From Candidatus Binatia bacterium (GTDB lineage: Bacteria > Desulfobacterota > Binatia > HRBIN30), in contig JAKLJW010000008.1 of NCBI GenBank assembly GCA_023150935.1, positions 1,721-65,720 on the forward strand: a DNA stretch of 64,000 bases, given 5' to 3'. Positions 4,481-42,766 of this stretch are shown here, in pieces (the first letter of the stretch is position 1; the number at the start of each line of letters is the position of its first letter). The translations under genes were made by a program, and so were the position numbers. Under the pieces are notes generated by a model. That model ran no database searches, had not been told where the DNA came from, and saw only the letters and a list, made by a program, of their open reading frames with translations.

Positions 4481-4855
4481 CGGGGGGTCCCACAAACTCA
4501 TGTGCATCCTCTTTCGACCGGCTCACCGCCGCTACGCGGCCACAGGCGTTCGCTGGTTTGCCGACGAGACGCACGACGCGCCGTCCCATCGGCGTTCCGT
4601 CTTGACGGAAGTTCGCCGCCGGCGCAAGCCACCCGTACCGCACCGATCGTCCCAGGCAGCGCCGTCATCTCGGCGCGGGGCAGCGCCCGCAGCCCAAAGC
4701 GAACAACCAGCCCGTTCGCCCCTGCCGAGCCTGTCCCTCGATACGCCGCCTGAGAAGACGGCTGCTACTCGGGACGAACGGCAGGACACAGCCCTTACAT
4801 GGCCTGAAGATTTCTTCGCGCAGTGCGCGCAAACGCGGAATTCGTAAATCGGATC

Positions 4856-8202: not shown

Positions 8203-8340
8203 TTCCCTCTCCCTCAACTTCTGCTTCGAAAATCCGGGAGGGCAAGCGCAATGGCGGGTAGCCATCGGGGTCGGCATCGGTATCGGAATCGGTATCGATT
8301 CGAATGCCTCGATCCCGATAGCGATTCCGACCCCGACCCC
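8203..8340 (+). repeat. Repeat family copy A (core ~8241-8340; contains GGNATC hexamer run)
   Basis: About 100 bp at roughly 90% identity to 20032-20126, with weaker similarity extending about 40 bp upstream (…gtccctctcc…). It lies in the convergent gap between hicA and rnfD. Confidence 0.7.
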
Positions 8341-8403
8341 GCAGAGGGCACCACATTTTCATCCTCTTCAGACGACCGCCAGGTCATGGGCGGCATGTGC
8401 GGC

Positions 8404-8424
8404 AACGCGCGCGGAGCGCGCGTT
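8404..8424 (+). terminator. GC hairpin aacgcgcgc-gga-gcgcgcgtt (copy A), shared component of the repeat element
   Basis: Perfect 9-bp stem with 3-nt loop. An identical hairpin sits at 20534-20554. It is 128 bp downstream of the rnfD stop. No U-tract. Confidence 0.35.
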
Positions 8425-8551
8425 CCACCCGGGCGACTCGACTCCCCGCTTGCACCACCTGCCGCACGGGGATCCCGGCGTGCCACTGGCGCCCTGCCGG
8501 CCAGGGAAGTCGAAATCGTCGCGCCGGGCACACATCCGCGGGAATCGCAAC

Positions 8552-9502
8552 TCAACAGCCCGTCGCACGATCGAGGAGCGGCACCGCCGCGTTCGCTACC
8601 AGAACCGCCAACGCCGCACCGTCGGGGTAAGGAGTGTAGTAGCGCACCGCCATCGTATAGACCGCCGCGAGCACCGCGAAGATCACCCGCCCCCGGGCCG
8701 AGAACGGCGCGGTCACCGGATCGGTGAGCATGAAGAAGGCCGCCAGCAAAGCGCCGCCGGATAGCAACTGCGCCAACGCATCCCCCGCCAGCCACGGGGC
8801 GTGCCCTGCCATTCTCGCGCCCGGCGGAAGAACCAATGCCAGCAACGCCACCCCGGCCAGATACGTCAACGGCACACGCCAATCGACGGTCCGCATCAGG
8901 ATCAAGCATAACCCGCCGCCGAGCACCGCCAGCGGCGCCGCCTCGGCAAGCGCGCCCGGGTGAAGCCCGAACAACAACTCCCTCACCCCCGGTGCCACCG
9001 CACCGATCTCCTTCGCCAACGGCGTCGCCGCACTCACCCCGTCGACACCCGACCACGCCGGCGCAAGGAGCCGCGCCGGAACGATGCCCATGAGAACCAC
9101 CCGCCCCACCGCCGCCGGGTTGAACACGTTGTTGCCGAGACCGCCGAACAGGTGCTTGCCGACGAGAATCGCCGCCGCCGCACCCACCGGCCCAAGCCAG
9201 ATCGGCCCACTTGCCGGCATCGACAGCGCCGTAACAATCCCCGCAACCACGGCACTGCCGTCGAACGCTCGCCGCGCATCGCACGCCAGGTCGAATACCC
9301 ACGCCACCACCACGGCCAGACCGAGCGGCACGGCCGCCGCCGTTCCGTATCGCCAGATCGCCACCACACAAATCGGCAATAGCGCCAGCACCACTTCGAA
9401 CATCAGCCGCCGCAGAGTCCGCCCGCTATGGAGGAACGGACCCGTCACCTCGCCGGCCGCGGCGGTCGGTTTCATCCATGCCGGCGGTCGCGCATCGGTC
9501 AT
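8552..9502 (-). CDS. rnfD: Rnf/Nqr-type complex subunit D (RnfD/NqrB family)
   Basis: GGLGNNVFNPA motif, multi-TM layout, and C-terminal SAATPL (FMN-attachment Thr context). ATG 9502 overlaps the stop of the upstream gene (ATGA). Confidence 0.8.
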   Translation of the reverse strand: MTDARPPAWMKPTAAAGEVTGPFLHSGRTLRRLMFEVVLALLPICVVAIWRYGTAAAVPLGLAVVVAWVFDLACDARRAFDGSAVVAGIVTALSMPASGPIWLGPVGAAAAILVGKHLFGGLGNNVFNPAAVGRVVLMGIVPARLLAPAWSGVDGVSAATPLAKEIGAVAPGVRELLFGLHPGALAEAAPLAVLGGGLCLILMRTVDWRVPLTYLAGVALLALVLPPGARMAGHAPWLAGDALAQLLSGGALLAAFFMLTDPVTAPFSARGRVIFAVLAAVYTMAVRYYTPYPDGAALAVLVANAAVPLLDRATGC

Positions 9503-10297
9503 CGGAACACGTACGCCAGCGGCTGAAGCGCAAAGTACACGATCGCACACGCCGCCAGACCCATCGGCACGCCCTGTAACCGCACCGCCACTTCGTCACC
9601 GAACTGCAACCGCTCGACAATCGCATCGACCAGAGCCGTCGCCGCCACCCACAGCGCCATGGCTCGCAGCACTTCCCCGACACCTTCGTACTCCGGCACG
9701 GCAAGCACCAGAGCCACGGGCGCAACCCGGGGCGCCGCCAGCACGATCAGGCCCGCCGCCAGCGGGAATCCCAACCCGGCCGGCCACGGCCCAATGGCAC
9801 CCGCCCAGGCAATCGCCGGCGCCAGCACCGCCACCCAGCGACCCGGCCCCGGCCCGATCGACACGGCAACCGCGACGGCCAGGAAGACCAGGTCATACGC
9901 GGTCACGAGGTCTCCCGAGCGCAACGATCGCCACCGCGCACCCCAGCAGCAGCACGCCCGCCGTGCGGAATTGCAGCGGCACAAACAGCGCGACTGGCGG
10001 CCCGGCGACGGCCGCTACCAGTAGATTAGGCCACCGTCCCGCCAGTAGACCCGCCGCAACGATCGCCATCGCATTCACCCCCGGAACCACCGCCGCAGAC
10101 GCCCACGCCACGGCAATCCAGCGCAGAGGCGAGGCGTTCGCAACCGCTGCGCCAACGACCAGCGCCGCCGACCAGGCCAGCGCTCCCGACCACGACAGAT
10201 CGGCCACCGCCGGCAACAACGCAGCGACGACCCCGGCGCCTATCCACGCCTCCGACACCGGCACCGCCAACGCGCCAGCCGACTCGCCCGAGTTCAC
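9499..10297 (-). CDS. Rnf membrane subunit of the RnfA/RnfE (NqrD/E) family; reading frame switches within ~9896-10014
   Basis: N-terminal part: GTG 10297 (GTGA overlap with the rnfG stop) runs to TGA 9893. C-terminal part is in another frame, open 10014..9499, with its stop overlapping the rnfD ATG. The combined ~266 codons are polytopic. Only about 800 bp lie between rnfG and rnfD, which fits one A/E-type subunit, not two. Confidence 0.5.
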
Positions 10298-10776
10298 GGA
10301 GTCACCGCCTTCCATGCCTGCAGCCGTTCGTTGACGGCATCCACGACGCGCTGAGAGGACACCGTCGCACCGGTCACCGTGTGTACCACGAGAGGCGGCG
10401 TTGCCGCCCGGCCGCGGAACCGCTCGAGGAAGTCGCTCCGAAGCAGCGCGGTCCGATCGACTCCTTCGTGCCCGCGCACGAGCAGGACTTGCTCGATACC
10501 CCCTTCATCGACGACCACCGCGCCGCGCACGGGACCCTGCACACCGACGACATCGAAGAACAGCACCGCCGCCGAGCCGGCCCGGAACGCCGGCGGCCCG
10601 GACACGGCGACCGGCTCGACCGGACCGATCAGCGACTCCGCCAGTCGACGCGCAGCGTCGGGTCGCGGCAACGCCACGTTGAGTCCCAGTGCGCACGCCA
10701 GGAGCACGGCCCCCAGCCGATCCGCTCGCCCCACACCGGCCATGACCGCGGTCCGGACGCGGCTCGCCACAGTCAT
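10294..10776 (-). CDS. rnfG: Rnf subunit G (FMN-binding domain)
   Basis: C-terminal VHTVTGATVSSQRVVDAVNERL matches the RnfG/NqrC FMN_bind SGAT motif. ATG 10776 overlaps the rnfC TGA (ATGA). Confidence 0.75.
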   Translation of the reverse strand: MTVASRVRTAVMAGVGRADRLGAVLLACALGLNVALPRPDAARRLAESLIGPVEPVAVSGPPAFRAGSAAVLFFDVVGVQGPVRGAVVVDEGGIEQVLLVRGHEGVDRTALLRSDFLERFRGRAATPPLVVHTVTGATVSSQRVVDAVNERLQAWKAVTP

Positions 10777-11900
10777 GCACAACCCCCGGCCACGCGCGCG
10801 ACGAAATCGCGCTTCAGCACCCGCATGCGCGCCACCAGACGCCGCTCGGAAGGACAGACGAATTCGCACAGACCGCACTCGACACAATCGAGCACGGCCG
10901 CGGTCGGCCGCCGGATCAACCGGCTAACCGGCAGCTCGAACGGACAAGCCGCAAGGCACCGCCCGCACCTCACGCAACGCTCGTCCCGCCGTCCACTCAC
11001 CTCGTCGTGCGTCAGCGCCAGCACGGCAATCGTGCCGGCGGCGATCGGCGTCTCCGGCGCCGCGGCGTATCCCATCATCGGCCCACCGCAGATAACCGCC
11101 GCGACCCGCTCCATGTCGACCTCACAGCTCGCCAGTACGTGTCCGACCTCGGTGCCGATCGGAACGACGTAGTTGCCCGGCCGGCCGACGGCGCCCCCGT
11201 CCACGGTGATCACACGATCGACCAGGGGACGGCGTTCGTTGACCGCACGGTGGATCGCCCGGATCGTCTGCACGTTCAGCACCACGGCCCCGACCGCAGG
11301 CGGACGACCGCCCCGCGGCACCTCGCGCGCAAGCGTTCGACGAACGAGCATGCGCTCGTCGCCTCCCGGGTAGCCGCGATCGTCATCCACCACCAGCGCG
11401 CGCGCGGCGCCGACCGCCGCAACCGCCAACCCGGCCCCCGCCTCGATCTCCGCGCCATGCTCGGCAAGCACCCGGCTGTCGCAGGTCACGTACGGTTCGC
11501 TTTGCAGCGCGTTGACGACCACCGTATCGAGGCCCGGCCGCGAGGCGACGCGCGAGAGCTTGAGGTAAGTGGGAAACATCGCCCCGCCCATGCCCACCAC
11601 TCCGGCATCGCGCACGGCGTCGACGACATCCGCACCACGGGCAAGCGGCCGCACGACGTCCGGCTCGCCCGCAACCGCGATCTCGCCGCCGACGCCGACC
11701 ACGGTCCCGGATAGCGGCGAATGGACGCGCAACTGCCATGCGGCGCCTTGCGCCGATCGCGCCAGCAGGTCGCCGGCGCGGACGCGGTCGCCCGACTGCA
11801 CGACGCAGTGCAGGTCTCGCACCGGCAGGCGAACCAGCGGCGGCGCCACCAGCGGCGCGATGCGCGAGTCCGCCGTGCGCTTGCGAGCAGGTATTCTCAC
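10773..11900 (-). CDS. rnfC: Rnf subunit C (2x[4Fe-4S] ferredoxin motifs)
   Basis: GMGGAMFPTYLKL (RnfC core) and two CxxCxxCxxxCP motifs (CVRCGRCLAACP, CVECGLCEFVCP). GTG 11900 overlaps the cytochrome TGA (GTGA). Confidence 0.8.
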   Translation of the reverse strand: MRIPARKRTADSRIAPLVAPPLVRLPVRDLHCVVQSGDRVRAGDLLARSAQGAAWQLRVHSPLSGTVVGVGGEIAVAGEPDVVRPLARGADVVDAVRDAGVVGMGGAMFPTYLKLSRVASRPGLDTVVVNALQSEPYVTCDSRVLAEHGAEIEAGAGLAVAAVGAARALVVDDDRGYPGGDERMLVRRTLAREVPRGGRPPAVGAVVLNVQTIRAIHRAVNERRPLVDRVITVDGGAVGRPGNYVVPIGTEVGHVLASCEVDMERVAAVICGGPMMGYAAAPETPIAAGTIAVLALTHDEVSGRRDERCVRCGRCLAACPFELPVSRLIRRPTAAVLDCVECGLCEFVCPSERRLVARMRVLKRDFVARVAGGCA

Positions 11901-12430
11901 GGTGCCCACTCCTCGATGCGATGGCACTCGGCACATTGCGCGGCGAAGTATTCCGCGTGGCATTCGAGGCACCCCGCGCCCCGTTCGAGCCCGGCGCTCG
12001 CATGTTCCTGTCGCGCACGCCGGTCCCGTCCCGGATCGCGTACCGATTCGGTATGCCACGGCGGCACCTGCCTGACGTGGCAGTCGCGGCACTGCTCGGT
12101 CCGATGGCAGCCAAGGCACTGAGGGCGATCGGCTACCGCCGCGGCGCCGTGGGTCAGCGTCACGAACGCCGCGTCGTGCGTGGCCTGCACGCGGCCCCGG
12201 TGGCACTCGGCGCAACCCTGCGACGCCTCGCCACCGCGCGGGACGGGATCGCGACGAACTGCATTGACGCCCGCCCAGGCAAACGCCGCGACCAGCACAA
12301 CGCCGGCCAGTCCCGTCGCCGCCACGGGTCCGAGCATGCCCCTACCGGCTCGCCCGAGAACGGCGGCCGAGCCCGGAGCAGGAAGCCTCGCGCGGAGACG
12401 ACGCGCGTTCGTTTCGAAGTCCGTGCCCAT
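11897..12430 (-). CDS. Membrane-anchored pentahaem c-type cytochrome
   Basis: One N-terminal TM helix, then five CxxCH motifs (CAECH, CLGCH, CRDCH, CLECH, CAECH) in about 120 aa. Start is uncertain: ATG 12430 or TTG 12469. Confidence 0.65.
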   Translation of the reverse strand: MGTDFETNARRLRARLPAPGSAAVLGRAGRGMLGPVAATGLAGVVLVAAFAWAGVNAVRRDPVPRGGEASQGCAECHRGRVQATHDAAFVTLTHGAAAVADRPQCLGCHRTEQCRDCHVRQVPPWHTESVRDPGRDRRARQEHASAGLERGAGCLECHAEYFAAQCAECHRIEEWAP

Positions 12431-12559
12431 GCCCGGGTACCGTGTTCCCCGATCGGAGCGGTTTTTCAACCCGCCCGCAGCCCGAAGCGATCCGCGCCGT
12501 CGCCCCCGCGGGTCCGCCGAGCGACTCCTCGCCGGGCGGCATATCGACGCCCGCGGCGG

Positions 12560-15500
12560 CTAGCGCGGAACGCCGAGATCGATCCAGCGTACAACGGCCG
12601 CCAGCTCCTGCTCCGAAAGAGGATGCGCCGACGGATGCGGCCGGTCCCCTGCGATCGCGCCCGGTGCGTGCAACTCCCGACCCAGCAACTTCTCCGTCAG
12701 AGCGCTCTCGATCGCCAGTCCCTCGCCCGCCGTGTATCGGCGCAACGCCTCGTACGCCTCCGTGCCGGTCAGGTTCACCCCCGCCGCAGGGTCTTTGCCC
12801 GCGTGGCAGCTCGCACAACGCGCCTCGACGATCGGCCGCACATCGGTGTCGAAACTCGCCTCGCGCAACTCCACGGGTCCGTCGCCCGACCAGTTCGCAG
12901 GCATACGGCCCGTACCGCTTTCCTGGCTCCAGTTCGCCAGCGTCCGCGACGCCGAAGTCATCGCGTCGGGCCGGCGCAGGGTATCGGCCGGCCTCCCCGT
13001 CAGTCCGCCGTGACAGCCCCCACAGGTCTGCGCGAAGAGACGCCGCGGAATCGACAGGGTGTGCAGCTCGCCCGGCTGCGCGTACAGCCAGCGGTTCGGC
13101 GAACGCAACGCCATGCCCCGGCCGTTCAGCGACTGGAGGTCGAAAGCGAGCCCCGACGGCACCGCGGCGTAGAACGAACCGTCGGGTTCGAGCGGCAGCT
13201 CCGCGATAGTGACGCGCCTGTCGTCGCGCCATCCCACCAGTCTGACCCCCTGCACCTGATCGACGTCGGGCGTTTCCGTACCGCAGATCGGGCAGCTCGC
13301 CGTCGCGATGTGACGAGGCCCCACCGGCACGATCTGCTCGAAGAACGCATCGAGCAGCGGCAGGTCGGCCACGTGCAAGACGGCCGGCGTTCCTTCCGGA
13401 TAGCCGGCAAAGCCGCGCACGACCGCCGGCGCCCCGAACAGTCTCTCCTGCCGCAGCAACGACTTGCCCACCGGCTCCTTAAGACGGGCAACGACCGGGC
13501 GCGGCCACAGCTCGGAGTCGGGACCCCCGATCGTCGGCTCGCGCCGGAAAGCGCCGGGGGCGAACCCGTCCGGGGTCTGCCACGCCGGCGCCGGTACAAG
13601 TCGAAAGATGTCGAAGTCGGGATCGGCCCCCGCATCGGTCAGATCCAATGGCCCCTGCGCCCATGCAACAACGACGCTCCCGTCGGGCATCGGGAAAGGA
13701 TCGCGGTACGCACCGCCGGCCGACACACCGCGGGCCGCAGCCGTTGCATCGAGCGCCAACCACCCCGGCACGAAGCGCGGCAGCGACGTCACCGGCGTGC
13801 CGGTCGCATACGGATGATCGAGATTGTCGGTGGGGTTGTCGGCCTCGATCGTCGGGCCGAACTGGTGATCGGAAAGAATCAGACTGCCGCCCCACCACGA
13901 ATCGGCGTCACGGCCGATGCGGACCTCGAGGCCGTTCGGCAACTCGCGGTCGTCGGCGAAGATCGGCACTCCCGAACGGTTGCCGTTGTGGGTGTGGAAG
14001 TTCGAGCCGTCGACGTGGGTGCGGAACAACGCGCCGTTGAAGAACGGCCGGCCGTCCTGTTCTCCGGTACGCAGCGACGTGAACACGATCTCGCCCGACG
14101 ATCTCATCGTCGGACGCCTGACCTGACTCGGCGAGTAGGTCATACGCCGCAGCGTCGACCGCAACGTCTCCCGTTCCTGCCCCGGCGCCGCCAGTCGCAT
14201 ACGATAAGCGTCGAAACACGGCGCCAAGCGCGGCGTGCCTTCGATCACGTAGTGCGTCGTCGAGTCGATCGCGCGCGGCAGGGGCGCGTCGAGCAGCAGC
14301 TTCCCGGTTTCGTGACGCCGGACACGCCGCAGCGCTCCGGCGTTGCTGCCGCGAACGAAACGCACGGTACGACCGTCGTAGGCGCCCGCTCGCTCGGTGA
14401 GCTGGTCGTCGAGCAGCGCCGTCGAGCTGCCACCCTCGGCCTCGCCGAGGCGGCCGGCCGGACTCGACCGGCAAGCGCCCGCGTCGAGATTGGAGACGAA
14501 CACCAGCGCCGCGCGCGACAGGTCGTCGCCGTCACGGTCGTCCGGGTCCGGCACGTACAACGGATCGAGGAAGTGTACCGCCGGATCGGTCGAGAACGTC
14601 AATTGCCGCGCGGCACCGGTCGCGAGTTCGATCTCCCACAAGTCGAACGGTTCCTCCGCCGACCGGCGCATCGCAAAGACCACGCGGCGGGCGTCATAGC
14701 TCACCGCGGGCGCGCGCACGTCGGCCGCGGTGCCCTTGTGCAGGCCGGCCGTGAGGTTGACCTCCTCGCCGTCGCTGCGCCGCCAGTAGAGATCGCCCCC
14801 CGGCAGAAAGGTCAGGTCCTCGAAGAACCGTTCGGGGGAGTGACGTGGCCGGCGCACGAACACGAAGCCCCGCACCTCGCCGAGGGCGGCCGCCGTCCGC
14901 CGGCGGGCATCCTCGGCTTCGAGCCGCAGCCATTCGACCAGTAACCGGTAATCGGGATCGTCCTTGCGGAAAAAGTCGTTCCCGCCCTTGTGCACGATGC
15001 CGCCCTGCTCGACCGGGATGTTCTTGAGCAGTTGCTTCGACTGCTCGACGTCGCCGTCGAGCGCGACGAGCCGGGTGACCTTGCCGAGCATCGCCTGCCG
15101 GTTCGCACGGTGCATCGCGCCGGAAAACCGCGCCGGCAGGGCCGGCATACCGGCATCCAGCTTGAGGTCGTTGAAGGCCAGCTCGCCGTGGCAGTTGGCG
15201 CCCAGGCAGGTCTTGCGCACGAGGATCGGCGCGACCCGGCCGGCGAAGAACTCCTCGGTGGCACTCGGCGGGGACGGTGCGGACTGACGGGTGCGCGCCT
15301 CGACCTCGAGCCAGGCAACCAGTTCCGCGTAATCCGGGTCGTCGGGCGAGGCGAACACCTCCGGATGCCGCCAGTACCCGGAGTAGGCGGTCGCCAGCGG
15401 GGCGCGGGCAAGGAGACTTGCGGCCGGCGTTCCCGGATCGATCGGGCGCAGCGTGCGCGTCTGAGTCTCCCGGATCCGGGTACACCGATCGTAAGCGGCA

Positions 15501-15808
15501 CGCCGCTGGTCGGCCGAACCGATCCGACCTCGGTCGTCGGTGGGCCATTGCAGCAGCGCCGGCGCAGCGGCCTCCTCCTCCATCGCCCGGTAGCGCGCTT
15601 CGCGGACACCGTGACAGCCGCCGCAGCGCCGATCGAGGACGGGCACGACGCGCTCGCCGAACCGCGCCTCGGAATCCTCTTCAGCGACCGGCGGGGCATA
15701 GACCCACGGCAACCAGACCGAGCCTCCGGCGGCCGCGATCACAGCGCCGATTCCCAGTAAGGCGAGGGCCACGCCGCGCCGGCGTCTATGCGGTCGGGGC
15801 TCGATCAT
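12560..15808 (-). CDS. Large (~1080 aa) exported multi-domain protein: three c-type haem motifs plus PD40/TolB-like beta-propeller region
   Basis: CGGCHG twice and CASCHAG (CxxCH), each in a (V)RPIL…C..CH context resembling planctomycete-type cytochrome domains. Propeller-like repeats in the middle and an N-terminal TM/signal. ATG 15808 overlaps the apbE TGA. Upstream codons (to 16495) are an Arg-rich artefact overlapping apbE. Confidence 0.6.
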   Translation of the reverse strand: MIEPRPHRRRRGVALALLGIGAVIAAAGGSVWLPWVYAPPVAEEDSEARFGERVVPVLDRRCGGCHGVREARYRAMEEEAAAPALLQWPTDDRGRIGSADQRRAAYDRCTRIRETQTRTLRPIDPGTPAASLLARAPLATAYSGYWRHPEVFASPDDPDYAELVAWLEVEARTRQSAPSPPSATEEFFAGRVAPILVRKTCLGANCHGELAFNDLKLDAGMPALPARFSGAMHRANRQAMLGKVTRLVALDGDVEQSKQLLKNIPVEQGGIVHKGGNDFFRKDDPDYRLLVEWLRLEAEDARRRTAAALGEVRGFVFVRRPRHSPERFFEDLTFLPGGDLYWRRSDGEEVNLTAGLHKGTAADVRAPAVSYDARRVVFAMRRSAEEPFDLWEIELATGAARQLTFSTDPAVHFLDPLYVPDPDDRDGDDLSRAALVFVSNLDAGACRSSPAGRLGEAEGGSSTALLDDQLTERAGAYDGRTVRFVRGSNAGALRRVRRHETGKLLLDAPLPRAIDSTTHYVIEGTPRLAPCFDAYRMRLAAPGQERETLRSTLRRMTYSPSQVRRPTMRSSGEIVFTSLRTGEQDGRPFFNGALFRTHVDGSNFHTHNGNRSGVPIFADDRELPNGLEVRIGRDADSWWGGSLILSDHQFGPTIEADNPTDNLDHPYATGTPVTSLPRFVPGWLALDATAAARGVSAGGAYRDPFPMPDGSVVVAWAQGPLDLTDAGADPDFDIFRLVPAPAWQTPDGFAPGAFRREPTIGGPDSELWPRPVVARLKEPVGKSLLRQERLFGAPAVVRGFAGYPEGTPAVLHVADLPLLDAFFEQIVPVGPRHIATASCPICGTETPDVDQVQGVRLVGWRDDRRVTIAELPLEPDGSFYAAVPSGLAFDLQSLNGRGMALRSPNRWLYAQPGELHTLSIPRRLFAQTCGGCHGGLTGRPADTLRRPDAMTSASRTLANWSQESGTGRMPANWSGDGPVELREASFDTDVRPIVEARCASCHAGKDPAAGVNLTGTEAYEALRRYTAGEGLAIESALTEKLLGRELHAPGAIAGDRPHPSAHPLSEQELAAVVRWIDLGVPR

Positions 15809-16851
15809 CGCAGCCATTGCAAGCGGTCGCCTTCGAGACGCAGGCCCCGCGACAGATGTACTCGGCCATCGCGATCGACGGCGAGAGCCTCGACGTCCGG
15901 CAGTGCGTCGGCCAGCGCAATCCCCCGTTCCCAGCCGAGCACGGCGATCGCGGTAGCCAGCGCGTCGGCGGCGGTGCCGTTGCCGGCGATCGCGGTCGCA
16001 CCGGTCACTTCGCGTGCCGGCCAGCCGGTGCGCAGGTCGACGATATGCTGATAGCGCGTGCCATCGACGGCGAAGAACCGTTCGTAGTCGCCGGAAGTGG
16101 CGATCGCGCAGTCGGTGGCCGGGAGCGTTGCGAGCAGGGTGTCGCGGCGCGGATCGCGCACCCCGACGATCCACGGGGCACCGTCCCGAGAGCCGCCGAC
16201 GACGACGTCGCCACCCGCATCGACGATGAAATTCGGGAAGCCGATCTGCCGCAGCCGCGCGGCCATGCGGTCGGCGGCGAAGCCCTTGCCGATGGCGCCG
16301 AAGCCGAGCTTCATGCCCGCACGGGCAAGGCCGATGCGGGCGCCTTCCTGCCGAATGCCCCGGTAGCCGACCAGTGCCTGGCGTGCGGCGATTTCCGCGC
16401 CGGCCGGCAGCCTTCGGGTCAGCCGCGCCCGCTCCCACAACTCGAAGAGCGGTCCCCCGGTGACGTCGAAGGCGCCGTCGCTGCGGCGCGCCCATTCAAT
16501 CGATCGCTCTACCAGCTCCTGCAGTTCGGGTCCGACGGCCACCGTCGCGGCCCCGGCCGCGGCATTGATCGCCGACGTCTCGCTGCCCGGCTGCCACTCG
16601 CTGATGCGCGCCTCGATCGCGGCGGCCAGGTCGAGCGCCTCGTTGGCGGCCGCGGCCGCGCGCGGCTGAGCGCCCGCTTCCGCCCACACCGACACCTCCA
16701 CCAGCGTACCCATCATGGGCCGCGCCACCCGGACGATCGCTCCGGCCGAACCGGGCCGGCCGCGCCGCTCGGCAACGCCGAGCGCGACCAGCACGGCAAC
16801 GCCCACCGCGACCGCCGCTATTCGATAGATAGGACGTACCGTGTCAGGCAT
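15805..16851 (-). CDS. apbE: FAD:protein FMN transferase (ApbE family)
   Basis: GAIGKGFAADRMAARL, DAGGDVVVGG and TSGDYERFF motifs. Signal/TM at the N-terminus. Start ATG 16851 verified codon-by-codon (MPDTVRPIYRIA…). Confidence 0.8.
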   Translation of the reverse strand: MPDTVRPIYRIAAVAVGVAVLVALGVAERRGRPGSAGAIVRVARPMMGTLVEVSVWAEAGAQPRAAAAANEALDLAAAIEARISEWQPGSETSAINAAAGAATVAVGPELQELVERSIEWARRSDGAFDVTGGPLFELWERARLTRRLPAGAEIAARQALVGYRGIRQEGARIGLARAGMKLGFGAIGKGFAADRMAARLRQIGFPNFIVDAGGDVVVGGSRDGAPWIVGVRDPRRDTLLATLPATDCAIATSGDYERFFAVDGTRYQHIVDLRTGWPAREVTGATAIAGNGTAADALATAIAVLGWERGIALADALPDVEALAVDRDGRVHLSRGLRLEGDRLQWLR

Positions 16852-20142: not shown

Positions 20143-20500
20143 CCGCGGAGTCAGGTCCCTCTCCCAGCGGGAGAGGTCAGGTGAGGGGATCCACATCCTC
20201 CCGCAGTTCAGTCCCGTGTCACGATCGCCACGCCCCGCACCGCTTCCCCAATTCTCGCCAGCACACCCTCGATGTTTTCAATCACGTCGTTGTTCCAGAA
20301 CCGCACAACCCGGCACCCCGAGAGTTTCAGAAACCGGGCACGCTCTTGGTCGTATTCCCGTTGCTCCAAGTGCTGACCGCCATCTACTTCCACCACCAGC
20401 CTCGATTCCACGCAACAGAAGTCGACGTGACGCTCGTGCCTCATTCGATCTTATCCCCTCACCTGTCCTCTCCCGCCGGGAGAGGAACCTGACTCCGCGG
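20143..20500 (+). mobile_element. MITE/REP-like cassette: 48-bp inverted repeats (20143-20190 and 20453-20500, 45/48 identical) flanking a DUF559 gene fragment
   Basis: Each arm is itself a palindrome (cctctccc-agc-gggagagg). The cassette is the only material present in repeat copy B but absent from copy A, which suggests a nested insertion. Confidence 0.5.
20208..20444 (-). pseudogene. N-terminally truncated DUF559 (very-short-patch-repair-like endonuclease fold) protein fragment
   Basis: …VDFCCVESRLVVEVDGGQHLEQREYDQERARFLKLSGCRVVRFWNNDV… is the conserved C-terminal two-thirds of DUF559 proteins. The N-terminal region is replaced by the inverted repeat. Confidence 0.6.
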
Positions 20501-27719: not shown

Positions 27720-30389
<2,670 letters not shown>

Positions 30390-30635
30390 GGCGACTGCTA
30401 CCCGGCGAGAGCGTCGAACGGCACCGGCTCGGCACGATCCGCATGCCCCGCCCCCGTGCAGGGACGCTCCGGCGTCGTCCGGGTCGGGACTCTCGGCCAC
30501 GATCGACGGCTAACGGGGCATCGCAGTCGAACCCACCGCGGGCCCGCACAAGCGATCTGTTCATCCGCGGCCGTCATTCACGCAGCTTGTACTTGACGCA
30601 AGCTGCCCCGTCGAGACGGCCGGGTTCCAGCGGGG

Positions 30636-30671
30636 GCCCGTCGTGTGCGGGTCCCCGTCGTGTGCGGGTCG
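30636..30671 (+). repeat. Tandem duplication of a 16-18 bp unit (ccgtcgtgtgcgggtc x2)
   Basis: Read directly from the sequence in the 630-bp non-coding gap upstream of the ATPase. Confidence 0.5.
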
Positions 30672-31127
30672 GACCACTTCAACCTGCGGTAATCGCTGGA
30701 TCTACGTAACGAAATCAGGCGCATTTTGCGGCTATGGCGTCGTTTTCGACGCCAGAACCGCCAGGATACGCCGCCGCTTCCTCACGCAGGACATGGGGCG
30801 CCGCCCTCACCCACCCGATTCCGAGGCAAAAAACGACCGCATAGACCCGTCTTTGAAGCCAGAATAAGCGACTTGTCAAATAAATGCGCGTACATCCGGA
30901 GGTCCGACCCACGCGACTCCGCAGGGTGCGAATTCCCACCGTTTCTCGCTGCGGGCTATGGCGTCCTTCCCGCCCCGTCCCGGCTTGTCCCGGACCGTTC
31001 GTTTGCAGAATGTTTGCGCCTCGTCGGTTCCGGATCTCGGTGGGATGTTGCATCACTCCGAGGGCGACATGGCGACCGTTCGGGCAGGCGCCGGCATCGG
31101 TGGGTGACGGTGCCCGAGTGGCCGCGA

Positions 31128-31400
31128 TCAGTACCTATCGATGTTCTCTCTCAGGATCAGCTTCAGCATTGTCTGATAAGGCAAGCCGCGTTTCTTCCCC
31201 TTCTGGGTCAGACGCGCGATAAGATCCGCCTCCAATTTGATGGAGGTTGGCCGGAGGGGCCGAACCACGACCGCCGAACCGGCCGCCTGTGCTGCGTCCG
31301 CCCAGTCCCCGCCCACCGTATCATTGCGGGTATTCCTCACTACGCCGATTCGCTTTCCCGCCGCCGCCGGTTTCCTCTTCCCGGCCGATGAGGCTCTCAT
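31128..31400 (-). CDS. brnA: BrnA antitoxin (ribbon-helix-helix type)
   Basis: C-terminal PTSIKLEADLIARLTQKGKKRGLPYQTMLKLILRENIDRY matches the BrnA family. Start is uncertain; the ORF overlaps the brnT 3' end. Confidence 0.65.
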   Translation of the reverse strand: MRASSAGKRKPAAAGKRIGVVRNTRNDTVGGDWADAAQAAGSAVVVRPLRPTSIKLEADLIARLTQKGKKRGLPYQTMLKLILRENIDRY

Positions 31401-31710
31401 AGAATTTCCTTTCCTTACGCCCCATGGGGCGACAACTGATTACACGTACCTTCGCGCCGCGGCGGGTGAAGACCATCGTGAGCCGTTTGCCGGTGTCTGT
31501 CTCTCCGAAGAGCACCCAGCGGGGTTCCGCATAGACCGGACTCACGACGCGGCCGGCGAGCACGAACACGCGTTCGATCAGGGACTCCGCCTCGTCGCAG
31601 GTCACGCCGTGCTTGGTCGTGCTCTTCAGGCTGTTGCCCTGGTCCCATACAAACGGGGGACGCCGCGCAAGCCACGCCGCCGTCTCCTCATCCGCAACGA
31701 GCCGCCTCAT
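31321..31710 (-). CDS. brnT: BrnT toxin (DUF497 ribonuclease toxin)
   Basis: FVWDQGNSLKSTTKHGVTCDEAESL…VISCRPMGRKERKFYE matches the BrnT signature (FEWDenK…HGVsFeEA…IISaRkAtkrErk.Y). Confidence 0.7.
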   Translation of the reverse strand: MRRLVADEETAAWLARRPPFVWDQGNSLKSTTKHGVTCDEAESLIERVFVLAGRVVSPVYAEPRWVLFGETDTGKRLTMVFTRRGAKVRVISCRPMGRKERKFYESLIGREEETGGGGKANRRSEEYPQ

Positions 31711-31826
31711 TGCCCACCAGCAACGTAGCTACCGCGTAGCTACCCGTCAATCATCGTACGGAGCCGCGCCCGCGATGCTTTGCGTTGCCGGCGTTGCTCC
31801 GCTCCTTGATCCCGTTGGGCGGAACC

Positions 31827-31862
31827 GACGAGACACCCACGTGCGAACCCGACCCGCCACCG
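31827..31862 (+). repeat. 36-bp imperfect direct repeat, copy 1 (gacgagacacccacgtgcgaacccgacccgccaccg)
   Basis: 33/36 identical to 32069-32104. Both lie downstream of the tRNA-Sec 3' end. Confidence 0.55.
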
Positions 31863-32068
31863 ATGAGCGCAGGGTGAGCGGGGGAAACCCAATCAAATTC
31901 CACCACCGCTCAGGCTGAGCCTGTCGAAGCCGGGTTTGGCCGCTTATCGACAGTCTCTTTCGCGGGAATGACGAAGGTCCCGCCGAGGCTTTGCAGGACG
32001 GCCACCCACGCGGTTTTCGCTGACCCTTGCCACAGGCTGCCGAGCATCCGTTAGTGTAACTGACGAAC

Positions 32069-32104
32069 TGACGACACACCCACGTGCAAACCCCACCCGC
32101 CACC
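32069..32104 (+). repeat. 36-bp imperfect direct repeat, copy 2
   Basis: See copy 1. Lies about 205 bp from the tRNA-Sec 3' end. Confidence 0.55.
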
Positions 32105-32309
32105 GTTCGTGCCGAGTAGCGCCGCTTCCTCAGGCGCGTATCGAGGCACGTCCGCTGTCACCCCTCGATACGGCCCCTGAACAAACGGGTCCTACTCGGG
32201 GCGAACGGGGAGTTGCGGGCATTGGGTTGCGGGGGGTAGCCCGCGCGATGTTCCAGGAGGAGGAGGACAAGTCCTCCGTAGCCCCCGCGTCAGATGAAGC
32301 GTGCGCGGG

Positions 32310-32403
32310 GGCGGAGGAGGAAGGGAGTCGAACCCTCCGTCCGACTTGCGCCGGACCACGCGGTTTTGAAGACCGGGGAGGCCACCGGGCCCCATCCTCC
32401 TCC
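32310..32403 (-). tRNA. selC: tRNA-Sec (selenocysteine tRNA, anticodon UCA)
   Basis: Hand-folded. 8-bp acceptor stem (GGAGGAGG/CCTCCTCC). 6-bp D-stem with 4-nt loop. 6-bp anticodon stem (one C·C mismatch) with loop CUUCAAA, identical to the E. coli tRNA-Sec loop. Long variable arm (5-bp stem). 5-bp T-stem with GTTCGACTC T-loop. Discriminator G. CCA is not encoded. Confidence 0.8.
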
Positions 32404-32580
32404 GTACCGTCCGCAAGACTATTCGATTTGAGAACATGGGCAAGGCGGGGATGAAGGGCCTGGGGGATCCACCACCTCACGTCCCCACGCCCTCATGCCC
32501 CCATGCCCTCACGCCCCAAGCCCCCAGCCATTGTCCCCGCCCTCCGTTTGCGTATTCTCTGGGCCCGGAGGACCGTACTC

Positions 32581-33786
32581 ATGCCTGCAGAACACGGCGC
32601 GCCCCCGTGGCGTAGCTTCGATCTCTTCGCCCCCACCGACGAACACCGCATGCTCGCCGACACTCTGCACACTTTCGTCCGCGACGAGGTGGAACCGCAA
32701 GCCGCCGCTTACAACCGCGACGAGCGCTTCAACCTTGCCCTGTTCCGCCGCGCCGGCGAACTCGGCCTGCTCGGGCTCACCATCCCCGAAAGCGAAGGCG
32801 GCGCCGGACTCGATGCCACCGCCGCGGTCATGACCCACGAGGCCCTCTCGTATGCCGACCCCGCCTTCTGCCTCTCGTACCTGGCGCACGCCGTGCTCTT
32901 CGCCCACAACTTCGCCCACAACGCCACCCCCGCCCAGCTTGCCCGCGTCCTGCCCAAAGCCATCAGCGGCGAGTGGATCGGCGGCATGTGCATGACCGAA
33001 CCGGACGCCGGCACCGACGTCCTCGGCATGCGCTCCACCGCCGTCCGCCAGGGCGATCACTACGTCCTCAACGGCCGCAAAATGTTCATCACCAACGGCG
33101 CTGTCGACGACCACACCCTCGGCGACGTCTTCCTCGTCTACGCCAAGACCGACGGCAAGATCAGCACCTTCCTGATCGAGAAGGGATTTCCCGGATTCGC
33201 CCTCGGCCAGCGCCTGCACGACAAGCTCGGCATGCGCGCCTCGATGACCGCCGAGCTGGTCTTCGATAACTGCATCGTGCCCGCCGGCAACCTCATCGGC
33301 CACGAAGGCGAGAGCATGAAACACATGATGCGGAACCTCGAGATGGAACGTCTGACCCTCGCCGCCATGTCGCTCGGCATCGCCATGCGCGCGGTCGAGG
33401 TCATGTTCCGCTACGCCAACGAGCGGAAGGCGTTCGGCACCGCCATCCGTGACTTCGGTCAGGTTCAGGCCCACCTCGCCAACTCGTACGCCGAGTTCAA
33501 AGCCGCCCGCGCCCTGGTCTACGATGTCGCGCGCCGGCTCGACCCCAGCACCTTCGGCAACCGCGCCGACGCCGACGCCGCTAAACTGTTCGCCGCCCGC
33601 ATCGCCAAAGACATCGCCGACCGCGCCATTCAGGTCCTCGGCGGCTACGGCTACATCGGCGAGTACGTCGTCGAACGCCTGTGGCGCGATGCCAAGTTGC
33701 TGGAGATCGGCGGCGGCACCAACGAGGCGCACCAGAAGAACATCACCAAAGACGTCTCCCGCACCCCGGAGATGATCCGCCGGTGA
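32581..33786 (+). CDS. Acyl-CoA dehydrogenase (isovaleryl/short-branched-chain type)
   Basis: Canonical ACAD architecture with …GGYGYIGEYVVERLWRDAKLLEIGGGTNE… C-terminus. ATG 32581. Confidence 0.85.
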   Translation: MPAEHGAPPWRSFDLFAPTDEHRMLADTLHTFVRDEVEPQAAAYNRDERFNLALFRRAGELGLLGLTIPESEGGAGLDATAAVMTHEALSYADPAFCLSYLAHAVLFAHNFAHNATPAQLARVLPKAISGEWIGGMCMTEPDAGTDVLGMRSTAVRQGDHYVLNGRKMFITNGAVDDHTLGDVFLVYAKTDGKISTFLIEKGFPGFALGQRLHDKLGMRASMTAELVFDNCIVPAGNLIGHEGESMKHMMRNLEMERLTLAAMSLGIAMRAVEVMFRYANERKAFGTAIRDFGQVQAHLANSYAEFKAARALVYDVARRLDPSTFGNRADADAAKLFAARIAKDIADRAIQVLGGYGYIGEYVVERLWRDAKLLEIGGGTNEAHQKNITKDVSRTPEMIRR

Positions 33787-34745
33787 ACCGCCCCATTCTC
33801 GCCGCAATGGTCACGCTCGCGGTCGCCGCCGGCACCGCATGCGCCCACCCCCCGCACGCCTCCACGTCCCCACGCCCCCACGCCCTCACGCCCCCACGCC
33901 CCCCCCGCTTCTTCGTCCACGGCGACGGCCGTTTACGGCTCCGCCACGCCCACTTCAACAGCGTCCTCGACGTTCGCTATCGCCGCCCCGACGGCACTTA
34001 CGATCCGGCGGCGCTGGCCGAGATCCGGCACTTCTTCCGTTCCCGCGGCGACGGACGCGAAGGCCGCATATCGCTGCGACTGATCGAGCTGCTCGGCTAC
34101 GTACAAACCCACTACCGGCCACGGACGATGACCCTCGTCTCCGGATATCGCAGTCCGGACTACAACGAAGGAATCCGCTCGGCCGGGGCGCTGGCGGCGC
34201 AAACCTCGCTGCACACCCAGGGCCTTGCCGCGGACGTGGCAATGACCGGCGTCAACTTGAAGCGGCTCTGGACCGACCTGCGCGCCGAACAAGTCGGCGG
34301 CGCCGGGTACTACCGTAGCGGCAACTTCCTGCACCTCGACACCGGGCCGCCGCGCTTCTGGGAGGAAACGACCTCGCGGGTGAAAGACAACCTCTCCGCC
34401 GACAACGCGCGCGTCTTCGTTCGCACGGACTTCGACTACTACGACCGGCTCGACGGCGCCCGGGTGGAGCTGCACAGCGTCACGGCGTTTCCCCTCGCGA
34501 TCCGCCGGGAAGCGTCCGTGGGGGGAACGCAGGTTGTGCTCGAAGCGGCGGACAACACGCCGGCGACGCGGCGCGGCGATTGCCTCGTCATCGACGCCCC
34601 GGCCGACGCCTACGTCTTCAACGTACGCTCCGCCGACGGGCACGGTTCCGCCGGCAAGGCGCCGCTGGTGCTCACCACCTGCGCGCCGCGCACCGGCAAG
34701 ACGAAGGCCGAACTGGTCTCGAATCCGATCGAGGCGGAGCGGTAG
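33783..34745 (+). CDS. DUF882 / peptidase M15A family protein (YcbK/MepK-like), secreted
   Basis: GTG 33783 overlaps the ACAD TGA (GTGA). Signal peptide present. SGYRSPDYNEGIRSAGALAAQTSLHTQGLAADV…LHLDTG core of DUF882 zinc peptidases. Confidence 0.7.
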   Translation: MNRPILAAMVTLAVAAGTACAHPPHASTSPRPHALTPPRPPRFFVHGDGRLRLRHAHFNSVLDVRYRRPDGTYDPAALAEIRHFFRSRGDGREGRISLRLIELLGYVQTHYRPRTMTLVSGYRSPDYNEGIRSAGALAAQTSLHTQGLAADVAMTGVNLKRLWTDLRAEQVGGAGYYRSGNFLHLDTGPPRFWEETTSRVKDNLSADNARVFVRTDFDYYDRLDGARVELHSVTAFPLAIRREASVGGTQVVLEAADNTPATRRGDCLVIDAPADAYVFNVRSADGHGSAGKAPLVLTTCAPRTGKTKAELVSNPIEAER

Positions 34746-42094: not shown

Positions 42095-42766
42095 ATGCGT
42101 CTTCCCCAACCTTTTACTTCCGTGCTGCCCGTTCTGGTCGCTTCGACCATGGCCGGGTGCAGCCTTGTCGGTTGGAGGCATCCCGAGGCCCTACCGACGG
42201 TAACCCTCCGGGCGTCGACTGTGACGGCTCTGAGCGAGGGCGAGATCGCGGCCACCATCGTGCTGACGGTGCGCAACCCCGATTCGAACCCTGTACGGGT
42301 CGGGCGCGTTCGTTACCGGCTCACCTTCCCCGGAGGCGCCGAGGCCGGGGGCGCGGTAATCGTGAACGCGACCGTACCCGGCGGCGACGGCCATCTCGAT
42401 ATCGAGCTTCCGGTGCGTATAGCGAAGCGCCGTCTCCTGCCGGGGGCGGCGCCGATGCTGCTTTTGGGCGAGTTGCCGTACGACCTCGACGTCGGCGTGA
42501 GCATCGGAGCGCCGCTATTCGGCCACACCATCGACGTGCAGACATCCAGCGCGCTGCGGCTCGATCTGCCTCTGGAGCTGGTGCGACCCGGTCCCGGGCG
42601 GGACCCGGCCGGGGCCACGGCAAAGTCGTTCACCGAGGGGCGAACGGTTTTCAGGCATTACGGAACCCGGAATCCGTTCGGGCCGAGTAGCCGCCTTCTT
42701 CTGGCGGCGTATCGAGGCTCCGTCCCCGACTATGCCGTGGCCCTGGGGACTCGGCCCCCGGTTTGA
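42095..42766 (+). CDS. Lipoprotein with LEA14/WHy-like (water-stress / NDR1-HIN1-type) domain
   Basis: Lipobox MAGCS. A tandem beta-rich domain resembles the LEA_2 family. Confidence 0.45.
   Translation: MRLPQPFTSVLPVLVASTMAGCSLVGWRHPEALPTVTLRASTVTALSEGEIAATIVLTVRNPDSNPVRVGRVRYRLTFPGGAEAGGAVIVNATVPGGDGHLDIELPVRIAKRRLLPGAAPMLLLGELPYDLDVGVSIGAPLFGHTIDVQTSSALRLDLPLELVRPGPGRDPAGATAKSFTEGRTVFRHYGTRNPFGPSSRLLLAAYRGSVPDYAVALGTRPPV

Follow-up and report, generated by a model that had tools for sequence, protein, structure and literature searches.

We analysed a stretch of 64,000 nucleotides (the window, to which all coordinates refer) that carries a selenocysteine tRNA gene (tRNA-Sec, selC). The window has a GC content of 68%, and ordinary chromosomal genes are found in it, among them a transketolase, an Rnf-like cluster, NadD/RsfS-type genes, an RND efflux pump and a Ca-type P-type ATPase. 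For an acyl-CoA dehydrogenase encoded beside the tRNA gene, the best genome matches were Candidatus Binatia MAGs (69–80% amino-acid identity). As the tRNA-Sec gene is located on the minus strand, its 3′ side corresponds to the lower coordinates. On that side it is followed by a repeat stretch, a brnTA toxin–antitoxin module, a non-coding spacer and the ATPase gene; on its 5′ side lie the divergently oriented dehydrogenase gene and a MepK-like M15 peptidase gene (Table 1).

Farther from the tRNA gene, the Rnf/Nqr-like cluster (8552–16495, minus strand) comprises RnfD-, FMN_bind- and RnfC-like ORFs. Beside it, a protein of 1311 aa combines cytochrome c domains with a middle domain resembling hydrazine synthase alpha. 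A DUF559 (endonuclease-like) fragment of 78 aa (20208–20444, minus strand) stands alone between large genes of unassigned function and may have been left behind by a mobile or restriction-related gene.

Table 1. Features of the tRNA-Sec locus and related repeats in the window, in order of position (REP-like copies outside the locus are given last).
Feature	Position	Strand	Remarks
P-type ATPase (Ca-type)	27720 to about 30389	minus	
Non-coding spacer, brnA to ATPase	30390–31127		~740 nt
17-bp tandem duplication	30637–30670	plus	CCCGTCGTGTGCGGGTC x2, two perfect copies
brnA-like candidate antitoxin ORF	31128–31400	minus	90 aa; putative ribbon-helix-helix C-terminus
brnT, BrnT-family ribonuclease toxin	31321–31710	minus	129 aa; PF04365
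Repeat stretch, brnT to tRNA-Sec	31711–32309		600 nt
41-nt direct repeat, copy 1	31822–31862	plus	
41-nt direct repeat, copy 2	32065–32105	plus	abuts the first REP-like unit
REP-like hairpin doublet	32103–32149 and 32162–32208	plus and minus	inverted; REPIN/BIME-like
Second small hairpin	~32262–32277		follows the trailer hairpin
Trailer hairpin	32281–32312	minus	GC-rich, 9–11 bp; begins at the discriminator base
tRNA-Sec (selC)	32310–32403	minus	anticodon UCA; ARAGORN and Rfam RF01852
Divergent intergenic region	32404–32580		177 nt; tRNA-Sec / acyl-CoA dehydrogenase
Acyl-CoA dehydrogenase	32581–33786	plus	
MepK-like M15 peptidase	33783–34745	plus	
Other REP-like copies	4733–4781 and 42674–42718	minus and plus	intergenic

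The identity of the tRNA gene was assessed with ARAGORN and Rfam. ARAGORN called a single tRNA in the 64 kb, a tRNA-SeC with the anticodon tca at position 35. Rfam family RF01852 was matched over the full model (1–91 of 91) at 32313–32403 on the minus strand, with 77.7 bits (gathering score 47; E = 2.9e-14), and was the single Rfam family above threshold in the whole window. A preliminary description of this DNA had placed a tRNA-Sec gene here, and its coordinates proved exact. The fold is the bacterial 8/5 cloverleaf, in which an acceptor stem of 8 bp and a T stem of 5 bp make up a 13-bp acceptor/T helix; the D stem has 6 bp and a 4-nt loop, the variable arm 6 bp and a 4-nt loop, and the discriminator base is G. 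The 7-nt anticodon loop, CUUCAAA, is carried by a five-pair stem that contains one bulged C and closes with a C-U mismatch. Read from the sequence, the gene is directly followed by CCC and encodes no CCA, which must therefore be added post-transcriptionally; CCA is encoded in the tRNA-Sec genes of most relatives and absent from several. The gene was 100% identical across five independent Logan assemblies.

We evaluated the conservation of the fold on 27 distinct tRNA-Sec variants, derived from the window, one Binatia MAG and 44 metagenome loci, the latter selected by an exact 28-nt pattern. In the cloverleaf alignment 98.9% of cells were paired, and nine pairs had changed on both sides: three in the acceptor stem, five in the variable arm and one in the T stem. 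The covariation score was 0.267, compared to 0.036–0.070 when the 3′ partners were slid by one to three columns. All six helices were 92.6–100% paired. Since the search pattern fixed the D and anticodon arms, these add no independent information, and the covariation signal is that of the acceptor, variable and T helices. For the same reason, the bulged anticodon stem common to all 27 variants is a consequence of how they were selected. The variable-arm sequence of the window was unique, being found in none of the 26 other variants retrieved. The fold with a CUUCAAA loop that had been proposed from the letters of the sequence is thus borne out by both predictors and by the compensatory changes.

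Next, we looked for signs of selenocysteine use. Pfam scans of about 40 window ORFs revealed no SelA, SelB, SelD or Fdh, and a scan of the window for in-frame TGA codons with coding signal on both sides yielded no credible selenoprotein gene, in agreement with the preliminary description, according to which the window lacked selenocysteine machinery. One TGA candidate, at 2721 on the minus strand, was discarded, as the plus strand carries a glycosyltransferase gene to which its read-through frame is antisense. Beside the tRNA-Sec genes of relatives, the flanking genes inspected were unrelated to the Sel machinery, and a literature search for selenocysteine in Binatota or Binatia returned nothing relevant. 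In one metagenome locus (L124), the tRNA-Sec gene adjoins a NiFe hydrogenase, which was considered as a possible NiFeSe enzyme; the contig ends within its large-subunit gene.

It is conceivable that the gene is an orphan, decaying in a genome where selenocysteine has gone out of use, and the 64 kb free of selenocysteine machinery and selenoprotein genes, the unencoded CCA, and the bulged C and C-U mismatch in the anticodon stem would all be in keeping with this. We nevertheless judge it highly improbable. The full Rfam model was matched 30 bits above threshold, all helices have been kept, with compensatory changes across relatives, and the two apparent irregularities recur elsewhere: the bulged stem in all 27 variants (as follows from their selection) and the missing CCA in several relatives. 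Genes for selenocysteine synthesis and use are usually scattered in genomes, so little can be read from not finding them in 64 kb. The tRNA-Sec gene is real and intact, and it is most likely functional. As it is intact, identical in five assemblies and maintained by compensatory substitutions, it is reasonable to suppose that the organism makes selenoproteins.

The sequences immediately around the gene were then inspected. On its 3′ side, the RNA of 32225–32313 (minus strand) folds at −43 kcal/mol (z = −4.0), and the trailer hairpin within it would likely serve as a 3′ processing or termination structure. On the 5′ side, a weak promoter-like pair, TTGCCC-N16-TAGTCT, was recognised by eye and ends 12 nt before the tRNA-Sec gene. 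The promoter scan did not call it, and no consensus promoters or terminators were called by the scan of the locus; we take it as a candidate tRNA-Sec promoter. An Rfam search of 30300–32700 at E up to 5 returned the tRNA-Sec and otherwise chance matches of the miRNA type only.

The divergent intergenic region also contains an array of CACGCCCC octamers (32456–32541), which is G-rich on the tRNA-sense strand and lies about 53–138 nt upstream of the tRNA-Sec gene. A second CACGCCCC array (33844–33903) lies in the coding sequence of the MepK-like peptidase, where it gives rise to a His/Pro-rich linker behind the signal peptide. The two arrays form direct repeats flanking the acyl-CoA dehydrogenase gene (54 nt, ~80% identity). 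Neither was present in the related loci L014 and L123.

Past the trailer hairpins, the repeat stretch contains an inverted doublet of hairpin units, further copies of which lie in two other intergenic regions. Each unit has the layout CCGTTCG-NNCC-GAGTAG-(GC hairpin)-GTATCGAGG-NN, and the dispersed units were designated CCGTTCGNNCCGAGTAG units. The pattern GAGTAG-N10-35-TATCGAG had four matches in the window against zero expected. The stems vary between copies and yet stay paired through compensatory changes. The doublet as a whole can fold into one long hairpin, both as RNA of the tRNA-sense strand (−79.5 kcal/mol, z = −5.5) and as DNA (z = −4.5). GTAG-tagged REPs and REPINs are characterised by a palindrome behind a GTAG tag, by dispersed copies between genes and by inverted doublets (PMC3733652, PMC8266576). 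The defining features of REP/REPIN elements (PMC3733652) were all found here, namely an imperfect palindrome, the GTAG tag, dispersed copies and an inverted doublet. No RAYT/TnpA-REP (Y1 transposase) gene was detected among the scanned window ORFs, and none of the relatives examined had the unit in its tRNA-Sec flanks.

The REP-like copies coincide with breaks in short-read assemblies. In many samples, contigs end at 31926–31941 and others start at 32204–32211, bracketing the segment 31936–32203 that holds the doublet, and one short-read contig ends at 42641, beside the copy at 42674. We attribute these breaks to disruption of the assembly by a multi-copy repeat.

The doublet and the trailer hairpins could alternatively represent a functional selC terminator or insulator placed before brnTA and not selfish DNA. 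The very stable folds on the tRNA-sense strand just past the tRNA-Sec gene would suit such a role, as would the fact that tRNA-Sec and brnTA share a strand on which no consensus terminator was called. The REP-like unit, however, also occurs in unrelated intergenic regions and in both orientations, and it is missing from the tRNA-Sec flanks of all relatives, and we regard a dedicated terminator or insulator as unlikely. Assignment of the doublet to a dispersed REP-like family accounts for part of what had been described as repeat debris: repeats are indeed present, and the GTAG-tagged doublet among them had gone unrecognised.

Two further duplications were identified on the 3′ side. The copies of the 41-nt direct repeat are identical at 37 of 41 positions (90%), and a degenerate 30-nt core of the repeat had two matches against 0.00 expected. 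These are the direct repeats that had been given as 36 bp; their presence stands and their length is corrected to 41 nt. We considered the 41-nt repeat as a part of the REP-like family and rejected this, given that the other REP-like copies have different flanks. It is a local duplication. The tandem duplication in the spacer had likewise been noted, with a period of 18 bp; the period is 17. It is present in the window, in contigs L007 and L008 and, judged by length, in L010. Three Logan contigs (L009, L011 and L012) hold a single copy, and the duplication thus varies between strains.

The brnT gene was assigned with confidence. Its product matched BrnT_toxin (PF04365) over the full profile (1–77 of 77) with 60.4 bits against a cut-off of 34.5 (E = 2.1e-16), and the protein was identical in 21 Logan contigs. 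The matches of the brnA-like ORF, which fell in its C-terminal ribbon-helix-helix region, were below threshold, both for CopG_antitoxin (E = 5.8e-4, 21 bits, cut-off 28) and for BrnA_antitoxin (E = 4.4e-3, 17.8 bits, cut-off 26.1). A PDB sequence search gave only weak matches for brnT and brnA, those of the brnA-like ORF being to the CopG family, and NCBIfam and PADLOC searches gave no matches for either gene. The brnA-like ORF overlaps the tail of brnT by 80 nt. Its size and its place directly after brnT fit a candidate antitoxin. The brnTA module of the preliminary description is therefore solid in its toxin half and weak in its antitoxin half. GC3 was 0.76 in brnT and 0.73 in brnA, compared to 0.88 in neighbouring genes.

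The long non-coding gap that had been reported on this side was confirmed after brnA. Depending on the ATPase start (about 30326–30500), the spacer measures between 627 and ~800 nt. No credible ORF, Rfam match (E up to 5), consensus promoter or consensus terminator was found in 30390–31127, which presumably holds the promoter and leader of the ATPase gene. A perfect 7-bp hairpin is located at ~30735–30752 inside the spacer. Logan contigs from several samples also end within the ATPase gene itself (~28515–28584), at a conserved 10-residue motif, and these ends likely reflect assembly collapse with paralogous P-type ATPases.

The combination of features at this locus had been taken as typical of an integration hotspot, and we searched for the corresponding traces, first in the window. 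No integrase was found among the window ORFs between 20 and 38 kb. The last 27 nt of the tRNA, with up to three mismatches allowed, matched only themselves in the window. The best partial tRNA by local alignment (Smith–Waterman, compared to background windows) was 12 nt long (31999–32017) and at background level, and a 16-nt search with up to one mismatch revealed no second partial copy in the window or in the available sequence of the relatives' loci. Partial tRNA copies were accordingly rejected as att sites. No viral contigs carrying the tRNA 3′ end were found, and the window contains no recognisable island boundary. The segment 30390–32309, mostly non-coding DNA with two short genes, has a GC content of 0.645 against a window mean of 0.683, at about the 1st percentile of equal-sized windows, so its composition is mildly atypical; low GC is to some degree expected in non-coding DNA and short genes.

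Comparison with relatives was more informative. In the loci L014/L109, L094, L107 and L117, the dehydrogenase and the M15 peptidase are kept 5′ of a near-identical tRNA-Sec gene, and similarity to the window ends at the discriminator base. One of them, L107, extends only 259 nt past the tRNA, so that the comparison of 3′ genes covers the others. There, these genes are related neither to one another nor to those of the window: L014/L109 encodes a ferric-reductase-like membrane protein, L094 a TIR-NTPase-WD40 protein (domains recognised by eye from the translation, with no scan) and L117 an NAD-dependent epimerase-like protein (also by eye from the translation). Other relatives carry on the 3′ flank a decayed tyrosine integrase (L087), a weakly matching integrase fragment (L111), an IS630-type transposase (L090), ParB-like genes (L098 and L125) or toxin–antitoxin pairs of the types RHH+ParE (L114/L116) and Phd+PIN (L119). 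The motif TTGCTAACCGATTGC was found ~100 nt after the tRNA-Sec gene in five loci (L087, L094, L107, L119 and L122). Together with the similar tRNA-proximal sequence, this shared motif suggests a single family of integrative elements with varied cargo, including the decayed integrase, the TIR-NTPase-WD40 protein and the Phd/PIN pair.

On the 5′ side, locus L118 has a complete tyrosine integrase (8336–9634) whose end lies 55 nt upstream of the tRNA-Sec gene. It is preceded by ~8 kb of small same-strand genes, phage-like by size and arrangement (no scan was run on them); elements integrated at a tRNA are not usually oriented in this way. In L123 (1–404, oriented), 155 nt separate the 5′ end of the tRNA-Sec gene from the start of the M15 peptidase gene, with no acyl-CoA dehydrogenase between them, which indicates that the 5′ flank is not fully stable either.

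Among the signs by which genomic islands are recognised, variable 3′ content next to a shared 5′ flank was observed, and an integrase adjoining the tRNA and an att repeat were not found in the window. Comparison of the relatives' loci marks the tRNA-Sec gene as a recurrent landing and breakpoint site in the lineage, for which the hotspot reading holds; for the window genome itself a hotspot is not demonstrated. The earlier claim thus draws its support from the relatives, the window having no integrase, att-like tRNA copy or island boundary to offer. Mobile DNA is known to use selC as an established integration site in other bacteria, at selC in E. coli and at tRNA-Sec in the case of the Pf phages of Pseudomonas (PMC6174562, PMC2704930, PMC7549136).

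No relative was found in which the tRNA-Sec gene is directly followed by the P-type ATPase, so the patch in the window cannot be delimited as an insertion, and a plain rearrangement is possible. One may therefore ask whether site-specific integration is needed at all. The 3′ end of tRNA-Sec could instead be a lineage-specific rearrangement breakpoint at which small selfish elements have gathered, with a toxin–antitoxin pair, REP-like hairpins and slippage duplications accumulating in permissive intergenic DNA. The window, with neither an integrase nor an att-like tRNA fragment, is compatible with this, as are the relatives' loci, which likewise have no second partial tRNA copy; moreover, REP-like copies are found in two further, unrelated intergenic gaps, and the genes past the patch (Ca-type ATPase and RND efflux pump) are ordinary chromosomal ones. 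On the other hand, integrases and a shared 3′-proximal motif at the tRNA-Sec of relatives make up the pattern left by site-specific integration, and selC is a known integration site elsewhere (PMC6174562, PMC2704930, PMC7549136). We take the breakpoint without integration to be a serious contender that nonetheless falls short of being probable.

Overall, we consider it probable, with good confidence, that the window holds a functional selC gene in a Binatia chromosome, with an accessory patch on its 3′ side at a recurrent break in gene order. Transcription of the tRNA-Sec, whose UCA anticodon reads UGA, would start in the 177-bp region divergent with the acyl-CoA dehydrogenase gene and follow the minus strand, and the GC hairpin starting at the discriminator base would be where the transcript terminates or is processed. 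CCA would be added after transcription. For the steps that follow, the fold suggests the usual bacterial route: charging with serine, conversion by SelA and delivery by SelB. The ~1.9 kb of accessory DNA on the 3′ side comprises the REP-like doublet, the 41-nt duplication, brnTA and the spacer with its 17-bp duplication. In the lineage, gene order would break repeatedly at the 3′ end of tRNA-Sec, with integrative elements and other selfish DNA landing there, and in the window genome only a patch with no integrase would remain.

Two more far-reaching readings can be entertained, and we put them forward tentatively, thinking them rather less likely than not. According to the first, integrative elements of an undescribed family use the 3′ end of tRNA-Sec as their dedicated attachment site in Binatia and relatives. 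Members of this family would be marked by TTGCTAACCGATTGC ~100 nt after the tRNA and would carry variable defence or toxin–antitoxin cargo, and the brnTA patch of the window may be a decayed member. According to the second, the units of the form CCGTTCG-NNCC-GAGTAG-hairpin-GTATCGAGG may constitute a new, lineage-specific family of GTAG-tagged REPs/REPINs.

An intact tRNA-Sec gene in an uncultured member of the Binatia makes it probable that this little-known phylum decodes selenocysteine, and the long-known habit of mobile DNA of landing at selC extends to this lineage. Neither of these alters current understanding. The main practical value lies in annotation: the repeats adjacent to the tRNA are REP-like and break short-read assemblies here.

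Finally, we compared the components of the locus to known systems. All of them are of known kinds: a tRNA-Sec, a BrnTA module, GTAG-tagged REPs and a tRNA-associated variable region. With the bacterial tRNA-Sec of E. coli selC, the gene shares the UCA anticodon and CUUCAAA loop, the 8-bp acceptor and 5-bp T stems, the 6-bp D stem with its 4-nt loop, the long variable arm and the G discriminator. It differs in having CCC in place of an encoded CCA and in the bulged C and closing C-U mismatch of its anticodon stem.

Like type II BrnT/BrnA toxin–antitoxin systems (PF04365/PF14384), the module pairs a BrnT that scores above the cut-off with a small ORF that has a putative ribbon-helix-helix C-terminus, the toxin coming first; unlike them, it has a sub-threshold BrnA, an overlap of 80 nt between the two genes and a BrnT with ~25 extra C-terminal residues. 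The REP-like units agree with GTAG-tagged REP/REPIN/BIME elements (PMC3733652, PMC8266576) in their short GC-rich imperfect palindrome directly after the GTAG tag, in the dispersal of intergenic copies in both orientations and in the one inverted doublet forming a long hairpin. Compared to a minimal REP, the four copies examined have longer conserved flanks (CCGTTCG..CCGAGTAG and GTATCGAGG).

In contrast to the selC islands of Enterobacteria, such as LEE and SHI-2, and to the tRNA-Sec-integrating Pf phages of Pseudomonas (PMC6174562, PMC2704930, PMC7549136), the window has neither an integrase nor an att duplication and holds ~1.9 kb of accessory DNA, which makes its patch at most a remnant. 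What the lineage shares with these systems is that the 3′ end of tRNA-Sec borders conserved and variable DNA and that integrases and accessory cargo are found at the tRNA-Sec of relatives.
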